Of a stretch of DNA of 64,000 bases, positions 8,537 to 57,621 are shown piece by piece. The number at the start of each line of letters is the position of its first letter. The first letter of the stretch is position 1. The notes beneath the pieces were generated by a model. That model was given only the letters and a program-made list of their open reading frames with translations, was not told where the DNA came from and did not search any database. This DNA comes from Spirochaetae bacterium HGW-Spirochaetae-2 (lineage in GTDB: Bacteria > Spirochaetota > Spirochaetia > Sphaerochaetales > Sphaerochaetaceae): positions 11,057 to 75,056 of the forward strand of contig PGXW01000010.1 of the NCBI GenBank assembly GCA_002839355.1, given 5' to 3'. Made by a program: the position numbers and the translations under genes.

Positions 8537-9973
8537 CTAGACCATCCCGTTCTCTTGCAAATATACCATTGTGCGTTCCACCAATGAAAGGTTTTTCTCC
8601 AGAAAGGCTTTTTTTCTCAATACCAGTGGAATACACCGCTTGAGCGTATCCAATGGAATAGCCTTGCTGAGCAACAGGTATGCGGTGACCATGACAACAT
8701 TCGCAGCCGAGACCAGACCGGCCTCCTGCGCAAGATCGGTGGCCGGAATGTATATCGTCCTGACATCGGTCCTGCGGACCTTGCGGGTAACAATGGACGA
8801 GTTGACGAAAACCAAGGCGTTCTCGACCACTTGGTCCTCAAAATGGTCAAGGGACGGTCCATTCATGACCAACAACACGTTCGGGTGGTCGACCAAGGGA
8901 GAACCGACATCTTCCATGGACAAGGTCACACTCACATTCGCACTTCCTCCACGCATCTCGGGTCCATAGGAAGGCAGCCAAGAGACTGCGAGTCCTTCCG
9001 ACATCCCGCACGTGGCCACCAATTCCCCAGCGGACAACACGCCTTGTCCGCCGAATCCGGCTATCTTGACCCGTTGGGTCTCCGACAAGGGTTCCATGCG
9101 CATCACCGGAACATCGGAGGCTCCCTTGAGCAGGTCGACCAACGCCTCGTCATCCAACCAGAGCGGTTCTTCCTGGTCGCCCGGCCGATCATCTTGTTTC
9201 GTGACGGAATCACGGAAATTCCCCAACGGATAGAGGAGCGTCATCTGCTGGTCCATCCATGTACGGGCATCGACCGGAGACATGCCCCAGTTGGTCGGAC
9301 AAGGGGAGAGAATCTCCACGAAGGAAAACCCCTTGTTGTCGATCTGATTTTGCAGGGCCTTGTGCACAGCTTTGCGGGTCTTGAGCAATTCCTTGGGGGT
9401 CGCCACCGAGCAGCGCTCGATAAACACCGGTGCGGCGATCGCCTGCATCAGCTCGGCCATACCCATGGGCATACCGTCGCGGTCGCGGTCCCTACCGAAG
9501 GGGGTGGTCAAGGTCTTGCGGCCCAAGGGAGTCGTCGGGGCCATCTGTCCCCCAGTCATACCGTAGATGGCATTGTTGATGAAGAATACGGTTATCGGTT
9601 CACCCCGGTTCGCCGCATGGACGATTTCCGTCATACCGATTCCGGCCAAGTCCCCATCGCCCTGGTAGCTGATCACAATCGCATCCTTGACAGTCCGCTT
9701 GACCCCTGTGGCCACCGCGGGAGCACGGCCGTGGGAACACTGGATATTACCCGTATCGTAGTAATAGTAGGCGAACACGGAACATCCGACCGGTGAGAGG
9801 AAAATTGTCCGATCCTGGATCTTCAAATCATCGATAGCTTGGGCAATGAGCTTCTGGATCGTGCCATGCCCGCAACCGGGGCAATAATGTGTCGATTGCT
9901 CGCCTTCGCCCTTGCGTTCGTAGGTATCGTAGAACGAATCCGATTTCCCGAATTTCTGTACTTGCCCGATCAT
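8537..9973 (-). CDS. 2-oxoacid:ferredoxin oxidoreductase, fused beta (TPP-binding) and gamma subunit
   Basis: 478 aa. TPP motif GDGDLAGIG in the N-terminal two thirds. The C-terminal ~180 aa resemble an OFOR gamma subunit (KIAGFGGQGVLSAGELV). Confidence 0.8.
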   Translation of the reverse strand: MIGQVQKFGKSDSFYDTYERKGEGEQSTHYCPGCGHGTIQKLIAQAIDDLKIQDRTIFLSPVGCSVFAYYYYDTGNIQCSHGRAPAVATGVKRTVKDAIVISYQGDGDLAGIGMTEIVHAANRGEPITVFFINNAIYGMTGGQMAPTTPLGRKTLTTPFGRDRDRDGMPMGMAELMQAIAAPVFIERCSVATPKELLKTRKAVHKALQNQIDNKGFSFVEILSPCPTNWGMSPVDARTWMDQQMTLLYPLGNFRDSVTKQDDRPGDQEEPLWLDDEALVDLLKGASDVPVMRMEPLSETQRVKIAGFGGQGVLSAGELVATCGMSEGLAVSWLPSYGPEMRGGSANVSVTLSMEDVGSPLVDHPNVLLVMNGPSLDHFEDQVVENALVFVNSSIVTRKVRRTDVRTIYIPATDLAQEAGLVSAANVVMVTAYLLLSKAIPLDTLKRCIPLVLRKKAFLEKNLSLVERTMVYLQENGMV

Positions 9974-11040: not shown

Positions 11041-11262
11041 CTACTCGACCTCCTGCTCAGCCAGTACGGTCAGGGCACTGGGTTCGGGACAGCTGAGAAA
11101 GCAGAGTCCACACGCAGTGCATGCTTCCTCGTGGAAAAAATGGACATATTCATATCCCATGGTGTTGAGCTTGCCCGACATCGCAAGGCAGCCTTTGGGA
11201 CAGACGGAAACGCAAACGGCGCATCCTTTGCATTCATCGTCACGTACTCGGACATGATTCAT
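11041..11262 (-). CDS. 4Fe-4S ferredoxin-type delta subunit of the 2-oxoacid oxidoreductase
   Basis: Two cluster motifs, CKGCAVCVSVCP and CTACGLCFLSCP. Start chosen at MNHVRV (11262) with AGGAGG 6 nt upstream. Confidence 0.7.
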   Translation of the reverse strand: MNHVRVRDDECKGCAVCVSVCPKGCLAMSGKLNTMGYEYVHFFHEEACTACGLCFLSCPEPSALTVLAEQEVE

Positions 11263-23676: not shown

Positions 23677-24639
23677 ATGGCAGACATGCATGAAACAATA
23701 CGGAACATCGGTATCGTGCCCGTTATCAAGATCGATTCTCCCGAGCAGGCCCTCCCACTGGGCAAGGCATTGCTGGCCGGTGGCCTACCGGTCGCCGAGA
23801 TCACATTCAGGACAGCCGCCGGAGAAGAGGGTATCCGGATACTCAGCTCGCAATTGCCTCAACTGCTGGTCGGAGCGGGAACCATCACCTCGGTGGAGGC
23901 GGCCCGGAGAGCGATCGATGCCGGGGCGAAATTCATCGTTTCACCCGGATACAGCGACGATGTTGTCGAATACTGCATCCAGCGGAATGTCACGATCTAT
24001 CCCGGTGTGAACAACCCGTCGGAAATCCAATCGGCCATGCGACGAGGCCTTTCGGTGCTCAAATTCTTTCCGGCCGAGGCCTCAGGAGGTGTGGACATGC
24101 TCGATGCATTGAGCGGTCCATTCCCCACGCTCCGCTTCATGCCAACCGGCGGAATCGGTATGCACAACCTCGCTTCCTACATACGCAAACCCTATATCGT
24201 CGCCTGCGGCGGTAGCTGGATGGTGAAATCGGACCTGATAAACGAGGGGCGGTGGGACGAGATCACCCGTTTGAGCCGGGAAGCTGTGGCGGCTGTCCAC
24301 GGTTTTTCCTTCGCACACATCGGAATAAATCCTTCGGACACAGAGGAAGCAAGCAACATAACCATGGCGTTGGGAGTATTCTTGCAACCGGTGACCGAAG
24401 GTACCACTTCCTTCTTCGCCAGTGAAAGTATCGAGATCATGAAACAACCGTTCCTTGGAACCCATGGGCATATCGGCATACGGACATGGGATATCGAGCG
24501 GGCCTTGGAATATTTGAGAACCTTCGGGGTCGAGGCCGATGAAGCCACGGGAAGAAGGGATGCGAAGGGCCGCCTCACCGTGATCTACCTCAAGGATGAA
24601 GTCGGGGGCTTCGCCCTCCATTTGCTTCGGGCGAAATGA
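23677..24639 (+). CDS. eda: KDPG/KHG aldolase with C-terminal VOC (glyoxalase-like) extension
   Basis: First ~215 aa are Eda-like, with the Schiff-base lysine context GLSVLKFFPAEASGG. An extra ~105 aa with HIGI...HIGI VOC-like repeats follows. Start MADMHE with AAGGAAGG RBS. Confidence 0.8.
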   Translation: MADMHETIRNIGIVPVIKIDSPEQALPLGKALLAGGLPVAEITFRTAAGEEGIRILSSQLPQLLVGAGTITSVEAARRAIDAGAKFIVSPGYSDDVVEYCIQRNVTIYPGVNNPSEIQSAMRRGLSVLKFFPAEASGGVDMLDALSGPFPTLRFMPTGGIGMHNLASYIRKPYIVACGGSWMVKSDLINEGRWDEITRLSREAVAAVHGFSFAHIGINPSDTEEASNITMALGVFLQPVTEGTTSFFASESIEIMKQPFLGTHGHIGIRTWDIERALEYLRTFGVEADEATGRRDAKGRLTVIYLKDEVGGFALHLLRAK

Positions 24640-24711
24640 ATGGTATCGCAACCCCAGGGCAAGGGGTGGACCAGGGAGGCTTCGCCTCCGCTGCCGCCCC
24701 ATGGGGCTCAC

Positions 24712-24802
24712 GTATCTCACCCTACGTTCCCTGCACTTACTCGGTAATGGACCAATAGTAATTGTTCCGCTACCCTCGTTTCGTTGGGGAATAAAAGGTA
24801 TC
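24712..24802 (+). ncRNA. conserved ~91-nt intergenic element, copy 1 (candidate small RNA or 3'UTR-derived RNA; identity unknown)
   Basis: About 94% identical to 56209-56299 (5-6 substitutions). Non-coding on both strands. Internal hairpin GGACcaat-AGTA-attgTTCC. Preceded by two GC-rich hairpins after the eda stop and followed by an intrinsic terminator. Confidence 0.4.
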
Positions 24803-24819
24803 AATTCCCACCGTATCGG

Positions 24820-24849
24820 CCACGGGGTATTTGTACTCCGTGGTTTTTT
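24820..24849 (+). terminator. rho-independent terminator
   Basis: Stem CCACGG / CCGTGG with a 12-nt loop, followed by TTTTTT. Confidence 0.7.
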
Positions 24850-24878
24850 ATATCCTTTTCATCTTTTTTAATATATAC

Positions 24879-31448: not shown

Positions 31449-32557
31449 ACCTATTCACACGAAAATTCGAACGCATCAAGAACATGCAGCAGTTCACGTT
31501 GAAACGTGATTTCGCCTTTGGCGCCGTATCATTCTTCATCCTCGCGCTCTTCATCGGCGGCGGCATCTGGCTCCAGATGACCCTTTTTCCATGGATCCCC
31601 TTCGATCCGGTTATCACGTTGGCAGTGATCATCCTCGTGGCGGGACTCTTGGTGTCCCTCGTCCCCATGTGGGCAACCATCATCCAGTTCTGTGTGATCC
31701 TCTGGCTGATCATCCTGGGACATCTAGGCAACGCCCTTTACCCGTTGGGTTTGGCAGGTACCGCCGGCCTGTTGGTCGCCTCATCGGTCCAGCTGATTTT
31801 ACACTGGGACAAGGTGGTGGTATTGCGTATGGGACGTTTCAGGAAGGTGCATGGACCTGGCTTGCTGTTCCTCATGCCCTTGGTGGACCGGATCGCCGAA
31901 TTCGTGGATACCCGCATACGGGCAACCGATTTCAGTGCCGAGAAGACCTTGACCCGCGATACCGTTCCCGTGCATGTAGACGCGCTCGCCTTCTGGATGA
32001 TCTGGGATGCGAAGCATGCGATCCTTGAAGTGGAGAACTATATCGAAGCGGTCATCCTTTCGGCCCAGACCGCGCTCCGCGATGCTATCGGCAAACACGA
32101 CCTCTCCTCCCTCCTCTCCGAACGCGAGGAGCTGGGCAAGGAGATCCAGCTTGCCCTCGATGCCAAGACAAATCCGTGGGGGGTCACCATCCTCTCGATC
32201 GAGATCACCGACATCATCATTCCGAAGGAATTGGAGGATGCCTTGAGCAAGCAGGCACAGGCCCAACGGGAAAAGCAGTCCCGTGTGATCCTGGCGACCG
32301 CGGAGGTCGAGATAGCCAAGCAGTTCGAGGAAGCTGCCGTCATGTACTCGGAGAATCCCACAGCCCTGCAACTGCGGGCTATGAACATGGTGTACGAAGG
32401 AATCCGGCAGAACAACTCCATGATGCTCATGCCGGCATCGATACTGGACAACATGAATTTGGGAACAGTCCTTGGAAGTGCCGCCTTGCAGAAATTGCAG
32501 ACACCCGCACCTGCCAAGCCGGTTGCCACCGAAGAACCGGAAACCGGACGGAGGTAG
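31445..32557 (+). CDS. SPFH/band-7 (stomatin/prohibitin-like) membrane protein
   Basis: 370 aa. N-terminal transmembrane helices, then an SPFH core (VVVLRMGRFRKVHGPGLLFLMPLVDRI...) and a coiled-coil tail. Confidence 0.8.
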   Translation: MNLFTRKFERIKNMQQFTLKRDFAFGAVSFFILALFIGGGIWLQMTLFPWIPFDPVITLAVIILVAGLLVSLVPMWATIIQFCVILWLIILGHLGNALYPLGLAGTAGLLVASSVQLILHWDKVVVLRMGRFRKVHGPGLLFLMPLVDRIAEFVDTRIRATDFSAEKTLTRDTVPVHVDALAFWMIWDAKHAILEVENYIEAVILSAQTALRDAIGKHDLSSLLSEREELGKEIQLALDAKTNPWGVTILSIEITDIIIPKELEDALSKQAQAQREKQSRVILATAEVEIAKQFEEAAVMYSENPTALQLRAMNMVYEGIRQNNSMMLMPASILDNMNLGTVLGSAALQKLQTPAPAKPVATEEPETGRR

Positions 32558-32560
32558 GAG

Positions 32561-33820
32561 ATGCGGTTGATGTTCCTCGTTGTACTGGCATGCAAGAACC
32601 TCACGCGCTACAAACGAAGGACTGTAATCACTGCGGTCACCATAGCGATCGGCTTGATGCTGTTCATCCTGATCGATTCGATCCTGATAGGCGTCGACAG
32701 GGAATCGGTGCGCAATTTGTTGTGGTATGAGACCTCCTCGGTGCGGATCATGGCCACCGGCTATTGGGAAGACCGGTTGATGCTGCCGTTGGATGTATCG
32801 ATCGACGATCCCTATGCAAAGGTTCGGTTGTTGCGGGAACAGGGCTACGACGCGACACCACGGATCATGTTCGCCGCCGACCTTATCCTCTACAGCGAGG
32901 ACTTTGGGGAAGATGGGAATCTCCCTGTCCGGGTGACCGCGGTTGACACGACGTTGGACAACACCGTCTTCCGCTTTGAAGACACCTTGTTGGAGGGACG
33001 TTTCGCCGAAAGCGGCAAGAACGAGCTGGTGATCGGATCATGGATGGCCGAGGACCTGCAGGCCGAGGTCGGGTATTGGGTAACGCTGGTCACCCGTGGC
33101 AATGGAGGATTCTTCGAAGCCATGGACATGCAGATCGTGGGAATCGTCAATTGTCCGAATCCGAATGTGAACCGCTCGCTGCTCATGGTACCGATCGATA
33201 CGATCGCCGATTACCTTGCCATGGAGAATCTGGCCACCGAGATAGACATCTCACTTCCCGAATCGGCCGATGTCGATATCGAGGCTCAAGCGATAACACG
33301 CCTCATGGCCGAATCCGGCAACTCTGCGACGGTCATGACCTGGAAGGATTTGGCCGGAGACTACCTGGCCATGATGCAAGCCGAACGCGGGGGATCGTCG
33401 ACCATGTTGTTCCTGGTGTTCCTGATTGCCGCGGTGGGTATTTCCAACACCATGCTCATGGTGATCAACGAACGGACCCGCGAATTGGGAATGATGCGTG
33501 CGTTGGGAATGGACGACCGGAGCATCCACTGGCTGTTCATGCTGGAAGCAGGAGGAATCGGCTTGTTGGGCTCGTCGATCGGTGTAGCCCTGGGTATGCT
33601 GGCGAACATATATATCGTGCAGGAGGGGTTGGATTTCGGCTTCTTCATGCGGGAAATGGACATGGCCTATCGGGTGCAGGGCATTTTCCGCGGCGCATGG
33701 AGTTTGAGAAGCATTTTGACCACGTTCTTTTCGGGAATTTTCCTTTCCATGCTGGTTGCGTGGATTCCGACCCGACGGGCCATAAAAATGGATATTCCAT
33801 CATGTCTAAGACACCAATAG
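32561..33820 (+). CDS. FtsX/MacB-type ABC permease, LolC-like
   Basis: 419 aa. TM1, a large periplasmic domain, then three transmembrane helices. N-terminus ACKNLTRYKRRTVITAVTIAIGL. Confidence 0.8.
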   Translation: MRLMFLVVLACKNLTRYKRRTVITAVTIAIGLMLFILIDSILIGVDRESVRNLLWYETSSVRIMATGYWEDRLMLPLDVSIDDPYAKVRLLREQGYDATPRIMFAADLILYSEDFGEDGNLPVRVTAVDTTLDNTVFRFEDTLLEGRFAESGKNELVIGSWMAEDLQAEVGYWVTLVTRGNGGFFEAMDMQIVGIVNCPNPNVNRSLLMVPIDTIADYLAMENLATEIDISLPESADVDIEAQAITRLMAESGNSATVMTWKDLAGDYLAMMQAERGGSSTMLFLVFLIAAVGISNTMLMVINERTRELGMMRALGMDDRSIHWLFMLEAGGIGLLGSSIGVALGMLANIYIVQEGLDFGFFMREMDMAYRVQGIFRGAWSLRSILTTFFSGIFLSMLVAWIPTRRAIKMDIPSCLRHQ

Positions 33821-33831
33821 GAGGAGACAAC

Positions 33832-34509
33832 ATGATTCAGGTACAAAACGTTATCCGCAACTACAAGACGGGTGAAACTGTCGTCAAGGCGCTCAAGGGA
33901 GTCTCCTTGGATATTGGGGATGGGGAATTCCTCTCCATCGCAGGACCCTCCGGCTCGGGGAAGACAACCTTGTTGAACCTCATCGGGTGCATCGATGCCC
34001 TAGACGGTGGAGAGATCACCATCGAGGGACAACCGGTCTCGGGTATGGACAAGAAGGCCAAAACGGAGTTCCGTCGCAACAACCTGGGATTCATCTTCCA
34101 GACCTACAACCTCATCCCGGTATTGAGTGCCTTTGAAAACGTATCGTTCGTGTTGTCTATCCTCAACATTCCGGAGAAGGAAATCGAGGAACGGACCATG
34201 CGTATCCTCAAGGAGGTCGGACTCGAGGGGATGGAGAACCGCCGGCCCGATCGGCTCTCTGGTGGCCAGCAGCAACGCATCGCCATAGCCAGGGCCCTGG
34301 TGAAGAACCCCAAGATAGTCCTGGCCGATGAACCGACCGCGAACCTCGATTCCAAGACAGGCGAGGAGATCCTCAAGCTCATGAAGGAGATGAACCGGAA
34401 GTACCATACGACCTTCATCTTCTCCACCCACGACAGCATGGTCATGGACTACGCGAAGCGCCTGGTATTGTTGCACGACGGGCAGATCGTCAGCGACGAA
34501 AGGAGGTAA
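33832..34509 (+). CDS. ABC transporter ATP-binding protein, LolD/MacB-ATPase-like
   Basis: Walker A GPSGSGKTT, signature LSGGQQQRIAIARAL, Walker B LLADEPT. RBS AGGAGG. Shorter start chosen over the in-frame MSKTPIGGDN start. Confidence 0.9.
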   Translation: MIQVQNVIRNYKTGETVVKALKGVSLDIGDGEFLSIAGPSGSGKTTLLNLIGCIDALDGGEITIEGQPVSGMDKKAKTEFRRNNLGFIFQTYNLIPVLSAFENVSFVLSILNIPEKEIEERTMRILKEVGLEGMENRRPDRLSGGQQQRIAIARALVKNPKIVLADEPTANLDSKTGEEILKLMKEMNRKYHTTFIFSTHDSMVMDYAKRLVLLHDGQIVSDERR

Positions 34510-34511
34510 GT

Positions 34512-35765
34512 GTGAGATTCATCATCTCATTGGCCTTGAAGAACCTCTCCCGTTACAAGAGGCGGACAATCATCACCGCGGTGGCGATAGCTGTCGGACT
34601 GATGATGTATATCGTGGTCGATTCGATCCTATTGGGTGCCGAATTCGAATCGATGCGCAACTTGCGCTGGTATGAAACCGCATCGGCCCGTATCATGCAT
34701 CCCGACTATTGGGAAGATCGGTTGATGCGTCCCTTGGACATATCGATCGAGGACCCCTACACCATAGTCGATTCCTTGCGTAAGGAAGGAATCGCGGCCG
34801 CACCCCGCACAATGTTCTCCGCGGACCTGATCCTCTACAGCGAGGACTTCGGTGAGGATGGGCACATGCCGGTCCAGGTGACAGCAGTCGATCCCGAACT
34901 GGACAATTCCGTATTCCGATTCGAGGACACCTTGATCGAAGGGCGCTTTGTCGAGAGCGGAACCAACGAATTGGTGATAGGCTCCTGGTTCGCCGAGGAT
35001 ATCGGGGCGAAGGTCGGCTACTGGGTCACCTTGGTGACCCGAGGCAATGGAGGCTTCTACGAAGCCATGGACATGCAGATAGTCGGAATCGTCAATTGCC
35101 CCAATCCGAACGTGAACAGGACACTGCTGATGGTTCCGATCGATACCATAGGCGATTACCTGGCGATGGAAGGGGCGGCGACCGAGATAAACATCACATT
35201 GCCCGAGAGCGCTAAAATAGCGGAGGAAGTGGCTCGGATCCAGCAACTGCTCGACCCGAACGGCAACAACCTGCTGGTGGTCAGTTGGGACGACTTGGCC
35301 CGCGACTATGTGGCGCTTGCCGAAGCGAAACGCGGCGGAACGGGAATGATCCTCTTCCTGGTGTTCATCATTGCCGCGGTAGGTATTTCCAATACCATGC
35401 TCATGGCGATCTATGAGCGGATCAGGGAGTTGGGGATGATGCGGGCCCTCGGCATGAACGACCGCAGTATCCAGTTGGCATTCATGGTAGAGGCTGGAGG
35501 CATCGGGTTGATCGGTTCGACCATCGGGGTGCTCTTGGGAATCGCAATCAACTTCTACATGGTGAACGTTGGTATCGACTTCGGTCTGCTGATGCGCGAC
35601 ATGGACATGGGGTATCGCATCCAAAGCTCGTTCCGTGGAACCTGGAACCCATCGACCATCATAACAGCCTTCTTCTTCGGATCGATCCTATCCATGCTTG
35701 TGGCTTGGATTCCGACAAGACGGGCGCTGAAGATGGATATTCCATCGTGTCTGAGACACCAGTAA
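34512..35765 (+). CDS. FtsX/MacB-type ABC permease, LolE-like (paralog of 32561-33820)
   Basis: 417 aa, very similar in sequence to the first permease. Together they give the permease-ATPase-permease order of lolC-lolD-lolE. Confidence 0.8.
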   Translation: MRFIISLALKNLSRYKRRTIITAVAIAVGLMMYIVVDSILLGAEFESMRNLRWYETASARIMHPDYWEDRLMRPLDISIEDPYTIVDSLRKEGIAAAPRTMFSADLILYSEDFGEDGHMPVQVTAVDPELDNSVFRFEDTLIEGRFVESGTNELVIGSWFAEDIGAKVGYWVTLVTRGNGGFYEAMDMQIVGIVNCPNPNVNRTLLMVPIDTIGDYLAMEGAATEINITLPESAKIAEEVARIQQLLDPNGNNLLVVSWDDLARDYVALAEAKRGGTGMILFLVFIIAAVGISNTMLMAIYERIRELGMMRALGMNDRSIQLAFMVEAGGIGLIGSTIGVLLGIAINFYMVNVGIDFGLLMRDMDMGYRIQSSFRGTWNPSTIITAFFFGSILSMLVAWIPTRRALKMDIPSCLRHQ

Positions 35766-35777
35766 AAGGAGCAGATC

Positions 35778-48145: not shown

Positions 48146-48339
48146 ACGTATGCCTCCTAATGAGTTTTGGTAGCGGCTCCAAGGCAGACTTGGAACCGCA
48201 CTTTGATACTATGGTCGGGGTACTCTTTACTCCCATATGGAGCGAGTGCAGGGAACAAAAGGTGCAATACCCCACCCCTTGAGGCCGGCAAGAGGCGAAT
48301 CCTCGTGGATTCGGCTCTTGCCCGGGGTATCGGTACCTT

Positions 48340-49368
48340 TTACTTGAAGATCGAGTCGAACTTCTCGAGCATGCTCAATTTGTCACGGACCAACACGACA
48401 GGATCCACCGTAAGCATCTTTGCCTCGGCGACATTCACATCGATCGCATTCTCAAGCTTCATGTTCGGATTAATCGGCATGGTGTATTCTTCGAGCAGGA
48501 CGGATTGTCCGTCTTCGCTGATGATGTAGTCGTACAGCTTCTTGGCAGCTTCGACATTCTTAGTGTTCTTGATAATCGCAATCGGACTCTCGATAATGGG
48601 AATGTCATTGTCGGGGTACACGAATCCTATCGTCGCGCCCTGTGCCATGACTGTGCGGGCGATATAGTCGACTCCGATCGAAACCTTGTACTCACCGGCC
48701 GCGGCCTTGTTCACGACGCCACTCGAGCCATTCTCCAGCTTGACACCATTGGCCTTGAGCTTTTCGAAGTACGACCACCCGTAGCGCGGATTCTGGACCA
48801 ATCCAGCAACGGTAAACAGTGTCGTTCCGCTGGTCGTGGGATCGGTCATTGCAACATAATCCTTGAATTCGGGCTTCAGCAGGTCTTCCCAGGTCTTGGG
48901 AATCGAGTTGCCCTTCACCAGATTGGTGTTGTACACGAACCCCAGCATGATCAACCGTGCCGACATGTACAAGCGGTCCGGATCCTTGAACTTGTCGGGA
49001 ATCGATGCGGCAGCTGGAGAATCGTACGGCATGAGCAAGCCCTGCTCCTTGAAATCGATGTAGTTGGTGGGATCGCCAACCCAGATGATGTCGGCCGAAA
49101 TGCCACCTGCTTGTTGTTCCGTCGCCAACTTGGTCATTACGTTTCCTGTACCGGCGGTGTAATAGTCCATGGTGATGTTGGGATACTTCTTCATGAATCC
49201 CTCTTTGATAGCCGCCAGCTGCGAGTCTTTCAAAGATGAATAGAGCATTACTTTCTGCTTTGTTTCACCAGAGGATGCGGTCTCCGCGCCACCACCGGCG
49301 AATACGAATCCACTTGCCAGGACCACCAGTAGGGATACGACAATTAAAACCTTTCCATTCTTTTGCAT
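48340..49368 (-). CDS. ABC transporter periplasmic substrate-binding protein (SBP family 1; iron/polyamine/thiamine type)
   Basis: 342 aa with a signal peptide. First gene of the ABC operon. Confidence 0.75.
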   Translation of the reverse strand: MQKNGKVLIVVSLLVVLASGFVFAGGGAETASSGETKQKVMLYSSLKDSQLAAIKEGFMKKYPNITMDYYTAGTGNVMTKLATEQQAGGISADIIWVGDPTNYIDFKEQGLLMPYDSPAAASIPDKFKDPDRLYMSARLIMLGFVYNTNLVKGNSIPKTWEDLLKPEFKDYVAMTDPTTSGTTLFTVAGLVQNPRYGWSYFEKLKANGVKLENGSSGVVNKAAAGEYKVSIGVDYIARTVMAQGATIGFVYPDNDIPIIESPIAIIKNTKNVEAAKKLYDYIISEDGQSVLLEEYTMPINPNMKLENAIDVNVAEAKMLTVDPVVLVRDKLSMLEKFDSIFK

Positions 49369-51701: not shown

Positions 51702-52061
51702 TCACATGGATTCAGAAAACTGCACCCTGACACCGTCGGGATCCTGGACGTAGAAGAACTTGATATGGTCGTTGGGTTGGAACGGACCGCTTTCCACCAC
51801 AATCCCATGGTCAGCTATGAACGCGAGCGTCTTGTCCAGGGAATCGACCGCAAAGCCAAGTGTAATCCCATTGCCGATGACGAAGGTTCCGCTGGGACGT
51901 TGGATCAATTCGACTTGCGTCTCCCCTGCTCCAAGAAAAGCGATCTCACCATTGGGTCCGGCGTTGAAACGGCGGTTGACCGGCAAGCCGACGATATCCC
52001 TATAGAATGCGATCGATGTATCCAAGTCCTTCACCATGATGGTAGTCCAACAATAGGTCAT
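51702..52061 (-). CDS. VOC-family (glyoxalase/bleomycin-resistance fold) protein
   Basis: 119 aa ([20 protein letters not shown]...). Confidence 0.7.
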
Positions 52062-52125
52062 GCCAATACTCCTTTGTACAGAATTTCCTGCCTATGGTAC
52101 CATGGCAGTTGCAGGAGGAACAACA

Positions 52126-52542
52126 ATGAAATCATATCGAAAGGAATTGCACTTCAATCTGCCTACCAGACGAGGCTTGGTGAACATAACACAACAGGTG
52201 CAGGAAGCGGTAATCGATAGCGGGGTACGGGAAGGATTGGTCCTGGTGAACGCCATGAACATCACCGCCAGTGTATTCATCAATGACGACGAACGCGGAT
52301 TGCACAACGACTACGAGAAGTGGCTCGAAGGAATTGCCCCAGAAAAGCCCTACTCCCAATACCAGCACAACGGGTACGAGGACAATGCCGATGCCCACTT
52401 GAAGCGGACCATCATGGGACGTGAGACGGTGGTCTCCATTACCGACGGACAACTGGACTTCGGTACCTGGGAGCAGATCTTCTACTTCGAGTTCGACGGC
52501 AAACGAGACAAGCGGGTGTTGATTAAGATTATTGGCGAATGA
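52126..52542 (+). CDS. yjbQ: YjbQ/UPF0047 family protein
   Basis: 138 aa ([27 protein letters not shown]...[16 protein letters not shown]). RBS AGGAGG. Start MKSYRK. Confidence 0.8.
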
Positions 52543-52586
52543 ATCATTAGTACCATTTCTGGGAATCAGCTTGAAACACTTGTGTT

Positions 52587-52610
52587 ACGTGTATCACATG
52601 TGATACACGT
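52587..52610. promoter_or_regulatory. 24-bp perfect palindrome ACGTGTATCACA|TGTGATACACGT upstream of relB (putative antitoxin operator)
   Basis: Perfect 12+12 inverted repeat 22 bp upstream of the relB ATG. Flanked by TTGAAA (52571) and TATTTT (52610). Confidence 0.55.
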
Positions 52611-52631
52611 ATTTTACAGGAGGACAATGAA

Positions 52632-52871
52632 ATGAGCGAATCTATTTCCGTGCGATTACCGAAAGAATTGGTCGATCGTCTCGATAATTTGGCGAAGCAA
52701 ACCGGAAGAACGAAAACCTACTACATTCAGGAAGCACTCTTGGAAAAAGTAAGTGATTTGGAGTTAGTATACTTGGCCCAAAAACGCGAAGAAGATCTCA
52801 GGGCTGGACGCAGCAAAACTCATACGCTTGAAGAGGTCATCGAAGCGAATGGCTTGGCAGATAAGATTTGA
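52632..52871 (+). CDS. relB: RelB/DinJ-type ribbon-helix-helix antitoxin
   Basis: 79 aa. N-terminus ISVRLPKELVDRLDNLAKQTGRTKTYYIQEAL. AGGAGG upstream. Confidence 0.75.
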   Translation: MSESISVRLPKELVDRLDNLAKQTGRTKTYYIQEALLEKVSDLELVYLAQKREEDLRAGRSKTHTLEEVIEANGLADKI

Positions 52872-53121
52872 AACCCAAGCAGTAAAGGAACTTTCGGCTT
52901 TAGACAACTCCGTGAAAATAAAAATTCTAAAATACTTGAGAAAACTCGAGGAATGTGATGATCCACGTGTCCTTGGCAAATCGTTGACTAATAACTTTTC
53001 GGGTTACTGGAGGTACAGGATTGGCAACTACAGAATCATCTCTCGGATATACGACACTGAGTTGGTTATACTGTTACTCGCCATCCGAAAGAGGGATGTT
53101 GTTTATAAGATCAAGCAATGA
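52849..53121 (+). CDS. relE: RelE/ParE-family toxin
   Basis: 90 aa, MAWQIRFETQAVKEL...RYRIGNYRIISRIYD...RKRDVVY. Overlaps relB by 23 bp. Confidence 0.75.
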   Translation: MAWQIRFETQAVKELSALDNSVKIKILKYLRKLEECDDPRVLGKSLTNNFSGYWRYRIGNYRIISRIYDTELVILLLAIRKRDVVYKIKQ

Positions 53122-53270
53122 AATTTTTTCCATGCCTCCCTTTCAGATATTATCCTGATCAACCTATCTCTTTGGGTATATGCTATTAGGGTGAGTGACC
53201 ATTGAATTGCCCCTTTTTACTCATTCCCTAATACTCGCCTACTATTCACTTAAAAGGTTATACCTTCAAT

Positions 53271-53292
53271 ATATTCATCTTTATATGAATAC
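53271..53292. promoter_or_regulatory. inverted repeat ATATTCAT-ctttat-ATGAATAc just upstream of the SatD-like gene promoter
   Basis: 7/8 matching arms, 5 bp upstream of the -35 hexamer. Confidence 0.35.
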
Positions 53293-53296
53293 TTTG

Positions 53297-53324
53297 TTGA
53301 CATCTAGGGATTTTGTATTAGAAT
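53297..53324 (+). promoter_or_regulatory. near-consensus sigma70 promoter TTGACA-16-TAGAAT
   Basis: The -10 ends 6 nt before the first in-frame ATG (53331), which suggests a leaderless or very short-leader transcript. Confidence 0.5.
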
Positions 53325-53330
53325 GTGCAT

Positions 53331-54152
53331 ATGAAACAGGGTGGAAATTATTATGTGGCGGTTATCGCCGACATCAAGGATTCCAAGAAAGCGAAAAATC
53401 GGGCGCTACTGCAACAGAAGCTCAATTCGGTGCTCAACGAAATCAATCACAAAGTTGATCTCTCGTTCGGTTCCATCGTCTCGGAAAACCCACCTCTCTA
53501 TTACAAGGAATACTTGAAACCTCTACAGGGCAGCACGCATAAGGTGAAAACAGCACCTTTCCCTGTCGACATCAATCAAAATGTGTTAGCTTCCAACTTC
53601 ATGATTACGCTGGGAGATGAATTCCAAGGGTTGTTGTCGTATTGTTCCGGACTCATGCCGATTATCGACCATATCGAGAGGAGTCTATTCCCACAAAAGA
53701 TACGCTTCGGCATAGGAATTGGGGAAATCCAAACCGAGATCAATAGGAATCTTCCATTCGGCATGGATGGGCCGGCATACCATATAGCTAGGGAAATGAT
53801 ATCACTATTGAAAGAATCTGAGCGTAAGACACTGGAACCTTCTGCAAATATACGAATTGGCATACAAGGTAACGATGGTCTTTCATTCTTGCTGAATACA
53901 ATCTTCTCATTATTGACAACAATCAAGGAAAGATGGACTGATCGACAGGTTTTGATTATGAACACGTTCATGCATGAAGGAGCCCAGACTCAGATGAAAA
54001 CAGCAGAACACTTGGGCATTTCCCAATCAAGTGTCCAGAAAGCATTGTCTGCTTCAAATTTTTATACGTACCAGTATGCCCTTACCAACGTCTCTGTCAT
54101 GCTGCAGGACATCGGGTTTACATATGCTATTGAGAAATCATCAATCATGTGA
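53331..54152 (+). CDS. SatD-like protein (nucleotidyl-cyclase-like N-terminal motifs plus C-terminal HTH-like segment); function unknown
   Basis: 273 aa. VAVIADIKDSKKAKN and TLGDEFQGLL resemble the DxDxFK...GDEF metal-binding motifs of GGDEF and class-III cyclases. The C-terminus reads TQMKTAEHLGISQSSVQKALS. Family assignment is from memory of the SatD consensus and is unverified. Confidence 0.5.
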   Translation: MKQGGNYYVAVIADIKDSKKAKNRALLQQKLNSVLNEINHKVDLSFGSIVSENPPLYYKEYLKPLQGSTHKVKTAPFPVDINQNVLASNFMITLGDEFQGLLSYCSGLMPIIDHIERSLFPQKIRFGIGIGEIQTEINRNLPFGMDGPAYHIAREMISLLKESERKTLEPSANIRIGIQGNDGLSFLLNTIFSLLTTIKERWTDRQVLIMNTFMHEGAQTQMKTAEHLGISQSSVQKALSASNFYTYQYALTNVSVMLQDIGFTYAIEKSSIM

Positions 54153-54172
54153 CTGGAAGAGAGGTTGACAAT

Positions 54173-54907
54173 ATGTTCAGATCCATATGTAGCGTTTATT
54201 TGCTGCTACATCTTATCGGGGATTATTATATGCAGTCAGATAAAAACTCCCAAAGAAAAGAGATAAAGTACTCCGTTGTGCTATCCCATAGCATTATCTA
54301 CGCCATACCGTTTTTTATATTGGTAGTATTCATCGATTGGCAAAATGAATGGTTGATGCAAGCCGGTATGCTTAGTATTTCCCACCTATGTATCGACACC
54401 ATCAAACACTTCGTAGTAAAAGAACGTAAAAATATGGGGGCGTTACCATATCTGATCGATCAAGCATTCCATATGCTGTCTCTGATGTGTATAGCACTGA
54501 TTACCATTAGGTGGATGCATGGTATTGAGGCAGCGCCTTGGGTACAAACAATCATTAATGTTTCAAACACTAAGTATATAAATATCATTGCATGGGCTTG
54601 CATGCTACTACTGGTTGGAAAACCAGCAAATATCACAATCAGACAGATATTGAGAATATATAAACCAGCCGGAGATGAAGAATCGAAGAGAAAAGTCGGT
54701 GCATTGATTGGCTCCTTGGAACGTATCATCATGATGCTTCTTCTCGGAATTGGGCAATACACGGCAATTGCCTTGGTACTCACTGCTAAATCTATAGCCC
54801 GTTATGACATGCTCAAAGACAAGCAGTTTGCGGAGTATTACCTGTTGGGGACACTCTTAAGCACCTTGATTGTGTTATCAGCCTTCCTGGTTCTCCTGTA
54901 TCCTTGA
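54173..54907 (+). CDS. DUF3307 (SatE-like) polytopic membrane protein
   Basis: About 244 aa with six to seven hydrophobic helices. N-terminal LLLHLIGDYYMQ motif. Overlaps or is coupled to the upstream gene (GAGAGG RBS). Confidence 0.5.
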   Translation: MFRSICSVYLLLHLIGDYYMQSDKNSQRKEIKYSVVLSHSIIYAIPFFILVVFIDWQNEWLMQAGMLSISHLCIDTIKHFVVKERKNMGALPYLIDQAFHMLSLMCIALITIRWMHGIEAAPWVQTIINVSNTKYINIIAWACMLLLVGKPANITIRQILRIYKPAGDEESKRKVGALIGSLERIIMMLLLGIGQYTAIALVLTAKSIARYDMLKDKQFAEYYLLGTLLSTLIVLSAFLVLLYP

Positions 54908-55029
54908 CCAACCCGATTATCCTCACCCGGATTCTAAGCAATCTTCAAGCCTGAAAGGCCCAACGGCTCAATAAATGGTAATAATACTGCAGAACAAGCT
55001 CTGGACCTTGTCTCCGCCTCGATTGGATA

Positions 55030-55239
55030 TCAGTCTTCAGATTTTTCGGAGTTCTCAATATTGCCATATGCGGGAACTGATTCTCGCAACATGTCTCGGC
55101 GAAGAACCTGATTGATCCTTGTCTGATACCCCTTCCCCTCCGTCTTATACCAATCCAGGATATCGGCATCAATATACATACACACTTTTCTTTTCACCGG
55201 TCTATAGTTCTTCGGGTTTCGAAAATGCGATGGTCGCAT
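55030..55239 (-). CDS. BrnA/DUF4415-like antitoxin-type protein, apparently orphan
   Basis: 69 aa. ...KVCMYIDADILDWYKTEGKGYQTRINQVLRRDML matches the BrnA-type C-terminus (GYQTRIN..LR). No DUF497/BrnT-like gene adjacent. Confidence 0.45.
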   Translation of the reverse strand: MRPSHFRNPKNYRPVKRKVCMYIDADILDWYKTEGKGYQTRINQVLRRDMLRESVPAYGNIENSEKSED

Positions 55240-55377
55240 TCGAGGTACCTGGTACCAACTTTCGTTTTTGAATACAAAATTATTTCAAATGTTTAAATTT
55301 CTACTTTTCAACGGTATTTACAATAACAATACTCATAAATTGTATACAAATTTAATAACCGGTACCAGGCACCAACG

Positions 55378-56043
55378 TCAGTTGTAGGTGCCGCTGAGGG
55401 TGAACGTACCGTTGGGCAGGATATATTCAAGCGCCATTGTCTCATAATTGAATACTGCCCAAGTGAAGATACCGGCGACCTTGCCACGTGCTTGCAGCTT
55501 CGCGCCGTATGTTTCCTTCGCCACCCAATTCATGTCTATCGTGGCTCCCAGAAGTGATCCGTCAAGTACACCGTTGGCAGCGAGTGTCAACACAACGTTT
55601 CCCGCTACATCCTCAACATTGATCACACTGTGGTTCGAACCCGAGATTACTCCGGTGACCGGATCGAAATTATAGTTGGTGACATTCGACATGACGACAT
55701 TCTTACCGTCCAACAGGTCCCAATCGGACTCGATGAGACCACCGTATGGACCATACTGTGCACTGTACAGTGTCTCTTCGATCGTCTTGTAGTGGTTGCT
55801 ATTGCCCATAGTCCGGGTAACGACACTTTCATAATCCTGATACAGGTTTACTGTTGCAGTGAAAGATGTTGGACCCTTTCCCTTTGCGACAGCTTCAGCC
55901 TTGGCAGCATTCGATTCCATACTTCGACCTGTCATGTTGTCCATTTGCAGACCACCGACGGCCAAGTCACAACCAAGGAACACGGTGAAGAGTGCGATCA
56001 ACAAGATTGGAACGAGCATTTTTTTGACAGATTTCATTTTCAT
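55378..56043 (-). CDS. hypothetical lipoprotein
   Basis: Signal peptide with lipobox VFLGCD. Start MKMKSVKK. Flanked by AT-rich intergenic DNA on both sides. Confidence 0.6.
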   Translation of the reverse strand: MKMKSVKKMLVPILLIALFTVFLGCDLAVGGLQMDNMTGRSMESNAAKAEAVAKGKGPTSFTATVNLYQDYESVVTRTMGNSNHYKTIEETLYSAQYGPYGGLIESDWDLLDGKNVVMSNVTNYNFDPVTGVISGSNHSVINVEDVAGNVVLTLAANGVLDGSLLGATIDMNWVAKETYGAKLQARGKVAGIFTWAVFNYETMALEYILPNGTFTLSGTYN

Positions 56044-56208
56044 AAGTATACATCCTTTCCACAACTATTTGTATTGCATTACTATATAGCACCATCACAA
56101 TATGTCAATAATTTTTTAGCTTTGTTATACCAATTATAACACCTTTAACAATAAAATACTATTTGTGCATTTAATTCTTCATCATGCCAAACACAAGGAA
56201 AATGAAGG

Positions 56209-56299
56209 GTATCTCACCCTACGTTCCCTGCTCTCGCTCGGTAATGGACCAATAGTAATTGTTCCGCTACCCTCGTTTCGTTGGGGAATGAAAGGTTCC
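56209..56299 (+). ncRNA. conserved ~91-nt intergenic element, copy 2 (candidate 5' leader or small RNA; identity unknown)
   Basis: About 94% identical to 24712-24802. Lies 150 nt upstream of the DUF2974 gene start, after an AT-rich promoter-like tract. Followed by a CTCGC/GCGAG hairpin with no T-tract. Confidence 0.4.
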
Positions 56300-56451
56300 T
56301 TCGGCACCTCACCTTGCTCGCATTCGTTCAGGCGAGTGACAATCATCATTCCCAACACCGACATCTTGACCAGACCAAATCCTGGCCATATTGTAGATAT
56401 GGCGGGGAGAACAAACAGAAAAATGGTATCCCCTGTAGGAGAAAGCGAGGT

Positions 56452-57621
56452 ATGGCCAACATCTACGACTACCTGACCTGGCGCGGCGATCTGACGTTCA
56501 ACAAGGATCCGTTGAACGAAATCGACAGCCTGGTGTTCTCCACCCTTGCCTATGGAGAATTCGAGACCATACTCGCCCCATCGATCGGGGAGCTGTCCCT
56601 TCCGCTTGCCGAAGTTGACCAAGCATATGACAATTTCATGCAAGAGAATTACAAGGAATCCGATCCGCTGGGATTCTTCGGGGAGGTGCCGAAACTCCTC
56701 CATCAAGCTGCCACCACCAAACGGTTCGCCAACGTCCACCTCAGCGGATTTGAAAAACAGATAGATTTCGACCAGTCCAAACAATTTGTCGCCATGGTGA
56801 TATCCCTTCGGAAAAATCTCCACTTCCTCGCCTTCCGTGGAACCGACACCAACCTTGCCGGTTGGAAGGAGGATTTGCAGATGAGCTTCATGGATGAAGT
56901 TCCGGCACAGCAACTGGCCGCCGACTTTGCCAACAAGGCATTCGAATCGCTAGAGGGTGAATTCTATCTTGGTGGTCATTCCAAGGGAGGCAATCTGGCT
57001 GTCTATGCGGCCGTGAAAGCATCGAAAGAACAGCAGGACCGGATTATTGCCATATACAACAACGACGGACCCGGGTTCCAGTCACACATTGTCGAAAGCG
57101 ATGCCTACCAGCGAATCCTTGGCAACATCAAGACCTTCGTTCCAAGATCGTCTCCCGTCGGCTTGCTATTGGAACATGGCGGGGATTATACCGTAGTCGC
57201 CAGCACCCAAAAGAGCATATTGCAACACGACCCCTTCTCTTGGGAGGTACTCGGACCCCGATTTGTTTCCGAAGATGGACTTTCAAAAGGGGTGTTGGCG
57301 ATCAACAATGCCATACGGACGTGGTTGGCACAAGTTTCCATGGAGGAACGGGCCGAATTCGTGAAGGGGTTTTGCGACCTTATCGAGGCAACCGGTGCAA
57401 AGACCTTGGAGGACCTCACCAATGAGAAGCTGCAATCGGCTCAGGCAATACTGAAAGCCTATACCCATATGGGCAAGGATGCACGGACAAACCTCAAGAA
57501 GACCCTGGACCTCTTTTTCAAGGAGAGTCGAAAATCGATACGGGAAACGATACTCGGCGAGATAGACCATTTGCTTCCAAAGAAGCGCTCTCCCAAATCG
57601 ATATCGTCGGAGCAGGAATAA
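56452..57621 (+). CDS. DUF2974 (Mbeg1-like) alpha/beta-hydrolase / lipase-like protein
   Basis: 389 aa. MANIYDYLTWRGDLTFNKDPLNEIDSLVFSTLAY is the typical family N-terminus. Lipase-like GGHSKGG nucleophile elbow. Confidence 0.7.
   Translation: MANIYDYLTWRGDLTFNKDPLNEIDSLVFSTLAYGEFETILAPSIGELSLPLAEVDQAYDNFMQENYKESDPLGFFGEVPKLLHQAATTKRFANVHLSGFEKQIDFDQSKQFVAMVISLRKNLHFLAFRGTDTNLAGWKEDLQMSFMDEVPAQQLAADFANKAFESLEGEFYLGGHSKGGNLAVYAAVKASKEQQDRIIAIYNNDGPGFQSHIVESDAYQRILGNIKTFVPRSSPVGLLLEHGGDYTVVASTQKSILQHDPFSWEVLGPRFVSEDGLSKGVLAINNAIRTWLAQVSMEERAEFVKGFCDLIEATGAKTLEDLTNEKLQSAQAILKAYTHMGKDARTNLKKTLDLFFKESRKSIRETILGEIDHLLPKKRSPKSISSEQE

Follow-up and report, generated by a model that had tools for sequence, protein, structure and literature searches.

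The 64,000-nt window analysed here (positions 11,057 to 75,056 of contig PGXW01000010.1, assembly GCA_002839355.1, from the Sphaerochaetaceae genome Spirochaetae bacterium HGW-Spirochaetae-2) carries, towards its end, a gene for an Mbeg1-like protein of the DUF2974 family and, upstream of it, a short structured repeat that recurs elsewhere in the window. The original prediction described this repeat as the second copy of a conserved ~91-nt element, on the same strand as the first and about 150 nt before the start codon of the DUF2974 gene, and proposed that it was either a regulatory RNA or a very small non-autonomous repeat. A repeat search of the window recovered an 88-nt direct repeat with 95% identity (24712-24799 versus 56209-56296, +/+); its copies, referred to below as copies 1 and 2, are separated by 31,497 bp, and the similarity between them ends abruptly at either border. 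The distance from copy 2 to the ATG at 56452 is about 155-160 nt, in agreement with the first description. We consider it likely, at a probability of roughly 0.8, that copy 2 (56202-56292) is one member of a family of small, non-coding, non-autonomous, site-specific mobile repeats in Sphaerochaetaceae-type spirochaetes. The second of the two proposals is thus borne out: the element is multi-copy, has empty orthologous sites for all three of its copies in the window, occurs in tandem and nested arrangements, and breaks assemblies.

A 25-mer taken from the repeat has two matches in the window at ≤3 mismatches, where none is expected (100 shuffles). When a covariance model of the family (R1) was run over every position of the window, exactly three credible copies were identified (108.6, 106.2 and 31.3 bits), or three copies per 64 kb (Table 1); a further weak match at 9217-9287 (-), inside an open reading frame (ORF) of 478 aa, was dismissed as chance. 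The extent of ~91 nt first assigned to copy 1 has to be revised, as this copy is really ~160 nt long and the 88-nt repeat is only its 3' module. Copies 1 and 2 differ by four substitutions, three of which cluster in one segment (ctgcACTTACtcgg / ctgcTCTCGCtcgg). The prediction had taken this segment for a tolerated loop or G-U region; in the family alignment it forms the 5' side of an internal loop, is unpaired, and varies among family members at the positions concerned.

Table 1. Copies of the repeat and neighbouring features in the 64,000-nt window.
Feature	Position	Strand	Details
Copy 1, long form (~160 nt)	24636..24795	+	Profile built from long forms (nhmmer E=9e-57); covariance model
Copy 1, 5' module	24636..24711	+	Mini-hairpin and three short GC-rich hairpins
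Copy 1, 3' module	24712..24795	+	Corresponds to the 88-nt repeat
Intrinsic terminator of aldolase gene	24818..24852	+	12-bp stem (24818-24845) and T run; not part of the element
Copy 3	48219..48342	-	Decayed old long-form variant without apical hairpin; nhmmer E=6.5e-16; covariance model 31.3 bits
Promoter-like TTGACA-16-TATAGT	56081..56108	-	11/12 matches; faces divergent 221-aa gene (55378-56064, -)
Copy 2, short form	56202..56292	+	Covariance model 108.6 bits, E=3e-26
Copy 2, successive parts	56202..56206	+	ATGA(A) target motif (position given); then GGGTATCTCACCC mini-hairpin; then long imperfect hairpin; 3' end GGGGAATGAA
Copy 2, long hairpin		+	Basal stem TTCCC/GGGAA; 8x8 pyrimidine-rich internal loop; apical hairpin GGTAATGGACC...GTTCCGCTACC
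Truncated older relic, L038b-type subfamily	56296..56340	+	Directly 3' of copy 2
Promoter-like TTGACC-17-TATTGT	56366..56394	+	~70 nt downstream of copy 2
Mbeg1-like (DUF2974) gene	56452..57621	+	PF11187, E=4.6e-78

Two forms of the element were distinguished. The short form (~90 nt) runs from ATGAAGGGTATCTC... to ...GGGGAATGAA, and the long form (~160 nt) is the short form preceded by a 5' module with short GC-rich hairpins, its order being ATGAATGGTATCGCAACC, three short GC-rich hairpins and the 88-nt part. The ends of the element read ATGAA-GGTATC... on the 5' side and ...CGTTGGGGAATGAA on the 3' side, and both forms have a 5' mini-hairpin, GGT..ACC, that is dissimilar to the long hairpin of the 3' module. 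There is no ORF in the element, and the reading frame is unlike between the long and short forms. A small ORF, or translational coupling through an ATGA overlap, was rejected as a candidate on the grounds that the frame differs between the forms and that the changes are hairpin-compensatory.

All three copies are polymorphic for presence and absence among relatives. In a relative whose Mbeg1-like protein is 94% identical (L044), the flanking DNA is near-identical and ~87-92 nt are missing exactly at the site of copy 2; the element is also absent from a locus whose Mbeg1-like protein is 72% identical (L048). Copy 2 is a recent insertion, made after the split from the relative with the 94% identical protein. 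Copy 1 is lacking at three syntenic aldolase-DUF1508 loci (L041, L042 and L043; protein identity 76%, 73% and 68%, respectively), where the spacers measure 112-182 nt. Copy 3 is present in a 97% relative (L051, GCA_001829255.1, MIAV01) and absent from relatives at 87%, 85% and 81% (L053, L054 and L055). The window ORFs near the copies are syntenic in the element-free relatives, and R1 found no match in any empty orthologous locus.

These comparisons also bear on the idea that copies 1 and 2 are the attL and attR repeats of an integrated prophage or genomic island of 31.5 kb (24.8-56.2 kb), an arrangement that their direct orientation, their spacing and the low GC content at 52-56 kb would suit. 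Each copy is singly absent in relatives in which both flanks are syntenic, a third copy lies within the interval and many more exist elsewhere, no integrase or phage gene adjoins either repeat, and the interval holds ordinary chromosomal genes. We therefore give this idea almost no credence.

The point of insertion is well defined. In all three empty-versus-filled comparisons, ...AAAT(G/A)A is followed at once by the element body: the sequence of the empty sites is AAATGA followed by TAT.., AAGTGA followed by TATC, and AAATAA followed by AAAG.., and in the filled sites the element body continues from TGA as ATGGTATC, from TGA as AGGGTATC and from TAA as AAGGTACC. Among 22 non-redundant copies, 20 have ATGAA at the left border, preceded by A at -1 in 18, A at -2 in 14 and G at -3 in 11. 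In a fixed orientation, the element inserts directly 3' of (G)AAAT(G/A)A. The right end, GGGGAAT[G/C/A]A[A/T], is itself target-like and occurs as AATGAA, AATCAA, AATAAA or AATGAT; because it varies independently of the constant left motif across the 22 copies, there is no true target-site duplication (TSD). Terminal inverted repeats (TIRs) are not detectable either: the first 30 nt matched the reverse complement of the last 30 no better than shuffled sequence did (fraction of shuffles scoring at least as high, 0.45 for the long form and 0.20 for the short). The reservation that the repeat might be an internal part of a larger insertion sequence (IS) or miniature inverted-repeat transposable element (MITE) is borne out in part, in that the 88 nt of copy 1 are the 3' module of a ~160-nt element.

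The 3' end of the element (GGGGAATGAA) re-creates the target motif, which explains why copies stack in tandem. On one contig (L033, 408-659, +) a long and a short copy stand head-to-tail and overlap by a single AATGAA; a third copy is found 7 kb away on the opposite strand of the same contig. At a metagenome locus downstream of pyrG (L019, ~1133-1299, -), a diverged ~83-nt copy is nested within the apical hairpin of a resident copy. This locus is orthologous to L006 (6750-6845) and L039 (10042-10137), and the nested copy has AATG on both sides and is 5'-truncated relative to an L024-type copy. Repetition of the sequence is also visible in the assemblies. Three independent short-read assemblies of the window's strain (Logan contigs L014, L016 and L017) have their position 1 inside copy 2, at model position 134, a break that is explained by the fragmentation of short-read assemblies at repeats.

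Copy 2 itself landed beside an older member of the family. The relic that follows it aligns at 33/41 positions (window 56299-56338) with the L038 element, and the same relic in the element-free L044 aligns at 34/36 (score 62, compared with a maximum of 23 in 200 shuffles). The CTCGC/GCGAG hairpin that had been noted after copy 2 does exist, at ~56319-56338, but it belongs to this relic of another family member and not to copy 2. A target-like AATG(T)GA survives at the relic's 5' edge, where copy 2 landed, and the presence of the relic both next to copy 2 and in L044 suggests repeated insertion at the same spot. The fate of older copies can be followed at copy 3, which differs by 13.2% between the window and the 97% relative; third codon positions of the flanking genes differ by 14.6-21.9% and whole coding sequences by 6-8%. 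Judged by these divergences, the decay of copy 3 appears near-neutral.

The target motif accounts for a second regularity: the element often abuts an upstream stop codon because the motif contains TGA or TAA. In 8 of ~22 loci the TGA of the motif (TAA in copy 3) is the exact stop codon of a long co-oriented upstream ORF, including those of pyrG (>385 codons), an aldolase gene and a substrate-binding-protein gene (342 aa). At copy 1, the aldolase gene ends with the TGA at 24637-24639, upstream of which the frame is open for 460 codons (the protein as queried has 320 aa). Aldolase homologues are all 319-320 aa long and the empty sites keep their TGA or TAA, so the stop codon belongs to the gene and not to the element. 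A stop-containing motif is among the few sites at which an oriented insertion on its 3' side would leave the gene intact, and selection would then enrich such surviving copies.

A position next to stop codons is shared with integron-type attC sites, the ends of gene cassettes, which also form imperfect hairpins with unpaired bases and whose R' box (GTTRRRY) resembles the 3' GTTGGGG of the element. The copies nevertheless lie singly beside housekeeping genes (pyrG, grpE and the aldolase gene) and not in cassette arrays, the short form has no complementary R'' (RYYYAAC) on its 5' side in the family alignment described below (A3), and the insertions add the element alone and not a gene plus a site. 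We accordingly regard attC identity as highly improbable.

The hairpin of the 3' module is real. Alignment A3, which holds 19 distinct 3' modules, served to test a 19-pair structure made up of a basal stem, a clamp of 2 bp and an apical hairpin in three parts. The positions of this structure are 95.5% paired, compared with 34-54% when the partners are slid, and seven pairs show compensatory double changes, among them a basal pair (CG in 11 modules, UA in six and GC in one) and an apical pair (AU in 13 and CG in six). None of 500 shuffles attained the observed value on any structure measure. In some subfamilies the sequence of the apical hairpin has been wholly replaced and the pairing kept; lineages of the element that are active retain the hairpin. 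The two stems are separated by an 8x8 internal loop (ACUCRCUC / CUCRYUUC), both strands of which are pyrimidine-rich. Counted as a pointer to the strand, G-U pairs outnumber A-C pairs by 35 to 5 overall, a relation that becomes 3 to 5, and favours neither strand, once two nearly constant G-U pairs are set aside.

The family extends well beyond the window. An exact core 38-mer, scanned against one genome per species, was found at nine genome loci: six on different contigs of the metagenome-assembled genome (MAG) HGW-Spirochaetae-4 (PGXU01), two in Pleomorphochaeta sp. DL1XJH-081 (JBMDYO01), and one on a contig binned as Erysipelotrichaceae. A scan of metagenome contigs with a 23-nt degenerate pattern yielded 23 further loci, most of which carry one or several copies, diverged ones included. 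Four of the pattern matches (L020, L023, L026 and L031) contain no significant copy, L023 giving only a weak partial nhmmer match (E=0.15), and are chance matches to the pattern. The long-form profile also picked up further diverged copies in the retrieved loci, and R1 produced 34 hits over 42 sources. As to the 'uncultured Erysipelotrichaceae' contig (L002, CAKMJZ010000036.1), its flanks are identical to those of an HGW-Spirochaetae-4 contig (L008, PGXU01000005.1) and its element differs at a single base; the contig has probably been misbinned.

In three spirochaete lineages or more, and in metagenomes as well, related copies stand beside housekeeping genes that are unrelated to one another, the flanking genes including those for TctC, 2-hydroxyacid dehydrogenase, DUF3795, DctP, CTP synthase and GrpE; some copies lie antisense between co-directional genes (L001 and L009). 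At the observed density (three per 64 kb), a genome would hold some tens of copies and perhaps as many as a hundred, rather than the many hundreds of REP-type systems (discussed below). In Rfam, the whole window gave no hit at gathering thresholds, and permissive E-values on copies 1 and 2 returned only chance-level matches far below the gathering scores. Searches of phage and plasmid collections by blastn gave no hit and viral contigs no match, and an origin from phage or plasmid was rejected on these results. Literature searches with the sequence strings, and with Sphaerochaeta combined with repeat or MITE terms, were likewise without a hit, and the repeat family appears undescribed. Copies 1 and 2 were also considered as the template and variable repeats of a diversity-generating retroelement, in which differences fall mostly at A; this candidate was rejected, as both copies are intergenic, no reverse transcriptase is present and many copies exist.

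The other proposal, that copy 2 acts as a cis-regulatory 5' leader of the Mbeg1-like/DUF2974 gene (a riboswitch, attenuator or thermosensor), draws on its strand, its distance from the ATG and its structured hairpin. The comparison with relatives does not sustain it: the 94% and 72% relatives have no such element ahead of their orthologous gene, and elsewhere it follows the stop codons of genes unrelated to this one, or even lies antisense in intergenic positions (L001 and L009); it has no match in Rfam. A conserved promoter-like site also lies downstream of copy 2, its TTGACC and TATTGT hexamers and their 17-nt spacing recurring in L044 and L048 with a different spacer sequence. This site is probably the promoter of the Mbeg1-like gene, with a likely transcription start near 56400, so that the element would probably lie upstream of the promoter and outside the transcript leader. 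The AT-rich, promoter-like tract that had been described upstream of copy 2 is present, but the only strong promoter-like match in it is the minus-strand TTGACA-16-TATAGT, which faces the divergent gene. A leader function consequently seems very unlikely to us. Copy 2, which abuts the 5' edge of a relic and has a divergent promoter on either side, is a passenger, and the Mbeg1-like gene is a bystander.

For copy 1, the look of a terminated small RNA (sRNA) is more simply explained by insertion of the element downstream of the aldolase stop codon and ahead of the terminator that belongs to the aldolase gene. The contrast drawn earlier between the two copies is accurate as an observation: no plus-strand terminator follows copy 2, and a 12-bp terminator (24818-24845) follows copy 1. 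The interpretation as a terminated sRNA does not stand, however, since the terminator is native to the aldolase locus and its T run is conserved at element-free orthologous loci. On sequence grounds, copy 1 is best read as part of a 3' untranslated region (UTR) rather than as an independent terminated sRNA gene. Copy 3 occupies an operon spacer between the substrate-binding-protein gene (48340-49368, -) and an ABC ATPase gene, beginning right after the native TAA stop. In such transcribed positions, the 3' UTR of copy 1 or the operon spacer of copy 3, the hairpin may incidentally affect mRNA 3'-end stability.

These locations raise the alternative that the element is a functional structured RNA: a 3'-UTR stabiliser, a modulator of translation termination, or a multi-copy trans-acting sRNA whose C/U-rich loops pair with purine-rich targets. 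Such a function is compatible with mobility, and the RNA could either have been spread by mobility and then kept by selection, or be itself the reason for the conservation of sequence. Its stems covary and its loop sequence is conserved, identity reaches 88-94% across genera, many copies are expected to be transcribed in 3' UTRs given the bias towards sense orientation directly after stop codons, and copy 1 lies between a stop codon and a terminator. Against this, decay of the old copy 3 has proceeded at close to the synonymous rate, some copies run antisense to the genes on both sides or sit between divergent promoters, close relatives lack the element at all three loci, and the folding energy is not exceptional. 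We judge a functional RNA unlikely, if clearly less so than a leader.

If, as we favour, the element is a non-autonomous mobile repeat, it would be moved in trans by a chromosomally encoded enzyme that is specific for both sequence and structure. Our tentative best guess, more apt to be wrong than right, is a single-strand HUH/Y1 transposase of the IS200/IS605-RAYT type (RAYT, REP-associated tyrosine transposase; REP, repetitive extragenic palindromic sequence); it is prompted by the traits of the element, which has a hairpin, shows neither TIRs nor a true TSD, and inserts in one orientation just 3' of a fixed penta- or hexanucleotide. Alternatively, an IS110-type or other site-specific recombinase could act on a shared AATGAA core.

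Several observations weigh against mobility by such a route, or against mobility as the whole explanation. No transposase, recombinase or full-length autonomous relative was found in the retrieved flanking DNA or among the window ORFs checked. The 106 ORFs within 3 kb of copies match 148 Pfam families; among the 25 most frequent of these, none occurs in more than three ORFs and none is a transposase or recombinase, and among the families listed no protein family recurs beside copies. The short form has one long hairpin, compared with the hairpin normally present at each end of IS200/IS605 elements, and complementarity of the IS608 guide/cleavage-site kind was not seen. Folding energy is unremarkable (z = -0.95 to -2.2 as RNA and about -1.4 as DNA). 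The hand-drawn hairpins of the 5' module are 85% paired, compared with ≤55% when slid, but their covariation is weak, and the RNAalifold consensus of this module is unlike them. The unpaired internal loop is the most sequence-conserved part of the element, and copies from Sphaerochaeta, HGW-Spirochaetae-4 and Pleomorphochaeta are 88-94% identical where orthologous proteins are only ~60% identical. Identity this high across genera implies either horizontal spread or a constraint on sequence imposed by an enzyme or by a host function; together with the conserved loop, it could reflect a selected function, as an RNA or a protein-binding site, and not purely selfish spread.

Compared with known systems, the family belongs to the class of small structured mobile intergenic repeats, and is unusual in inserting after stop codons. 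It resembles the palindrome-associated transposable elements (PATEs) of IS200/IS605 and other HUH/Y1-mobilised elements in being small and non-coding, in lacking TIRs and a true TSD, and in combining a conserved hairpin with oriented, strand-specific insertion 3' of a fixed penta- or hexanucleotide. It departs from PATEs in that no TnpA or TnpB was found in the DNA examined, a single long hairpin takes the place of one subterminal hairpin per end, guide/cleavage-site complementarity is not evident, and the element carries at its own 3' end an echo of the target (G)AAAT(G/A)A. With REP sequences, bacterial interspersed mosaic elements (BIMEs) and the RAYT-associated REP doublets known as REPINs it shares an intergenic, multi-copy, hairpin-forming and non-autonomous nature, often just after stop codons and inside operons. 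In RAYT systems the enzyme is the product of a single-copy domesticated gene elsewhere in the genome. Unlike REPs and REPINs, the element is not a simple inverted doublet of a 20-35-nt REP, as its arms are non-complementary across the conserved 8x8 loop, and it has no GTAG-type head; nor was a RAYT seen in the DNA examined.

Classical MITEs (ERIC/IRU, Correia/NEMIS, RUP and BOX) are similarly 90-160 nt long, without an ORF, dispersed, foldable and often co-transcribed with their neighbours, and the presence/absence polymorphism and multi-copy, non-coding character typical of them are also found here. They have TIRs and short TSDs (often TA), however, whereas the present family has neither, and its target motif is longer and specific, with insertion in a single orientation. 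Mycobacterial interspersed repetitive units (MIRUs) are small repeats in operon spacers with ends that overlap the upstream stop codon. The likeness to them lies in this overlap; MIRUs are tandem direct repeats with small ORFs that couple translation, whereas here the frame is unconserved and the hairpin is conserved.

A more speculative possibility, to which we assign only a slim chance, is that the conserved loop strands (ACUCRCUC / CUCRYUUCGUU) and the basal stem serve as built-in guides, as RNA or single-stranded DNA, that pair with the (G)AAATGAA target and with the element's target-mimicking 3' end. The repeat would then be a miniature element that addresses itself to the first base behind a stop codon and is moved by a bridge-RNA- or HUH-type enzyme encoded elsewhere, or else a domesticated 3'-UTR module kept near-identical by selection. 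The loop sequence CGUUUC is complementary to GAAATG with one G-T wobble, a match of 6-7 nt only, and in subfamilies whose loop sequence has changed, the flanks have not changed to match. Were this true, the view of the element as a passive passenger would no longer suffice.

On the favoured reading of the family as mobile repeats, its mix of traits is unusual: neither TIRs nor a TSD, a covarying hairpin around a conserved loop, oriented insertion at the base just behind AAAT(G/A)A and hence behind stop codons, restoration of the target by the element's 3' end, and near-identity across genera. The annotation as a mobile repeat, now tested, replaces that of a regulatory leader or small RNA, and the family can be flagged as one that breaks MAG assemblies of Sphaerochaetaceae. 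Its copies are usable as markers of recent insertion for strain typing, and the mobilising enzyme, if found, could add a site-specific, structure-dependent insertion system in spirochaetes.

Two further observations concern the surroundings. The stretch at ~52000-56000 is GC-poor (41-44%, compared with ~52-55% elsewhere in the window) and encodes a ParE-like toxin, SatD, DUF3307 and a BrnA-antitoxin-like ORF. In the 94% relative (L044), a gene with RCC1 repeats is found instead upstream of the 221-aa gene, so that a strain-variable islet adjoins copy 2. Elsewhere in the window, at 32556-35771, a tandem duplication with a spacing of 1945 nt and 68-76% identity carries paralogous ORFs of ~418 aa (32561-33820 and 34512-35765).

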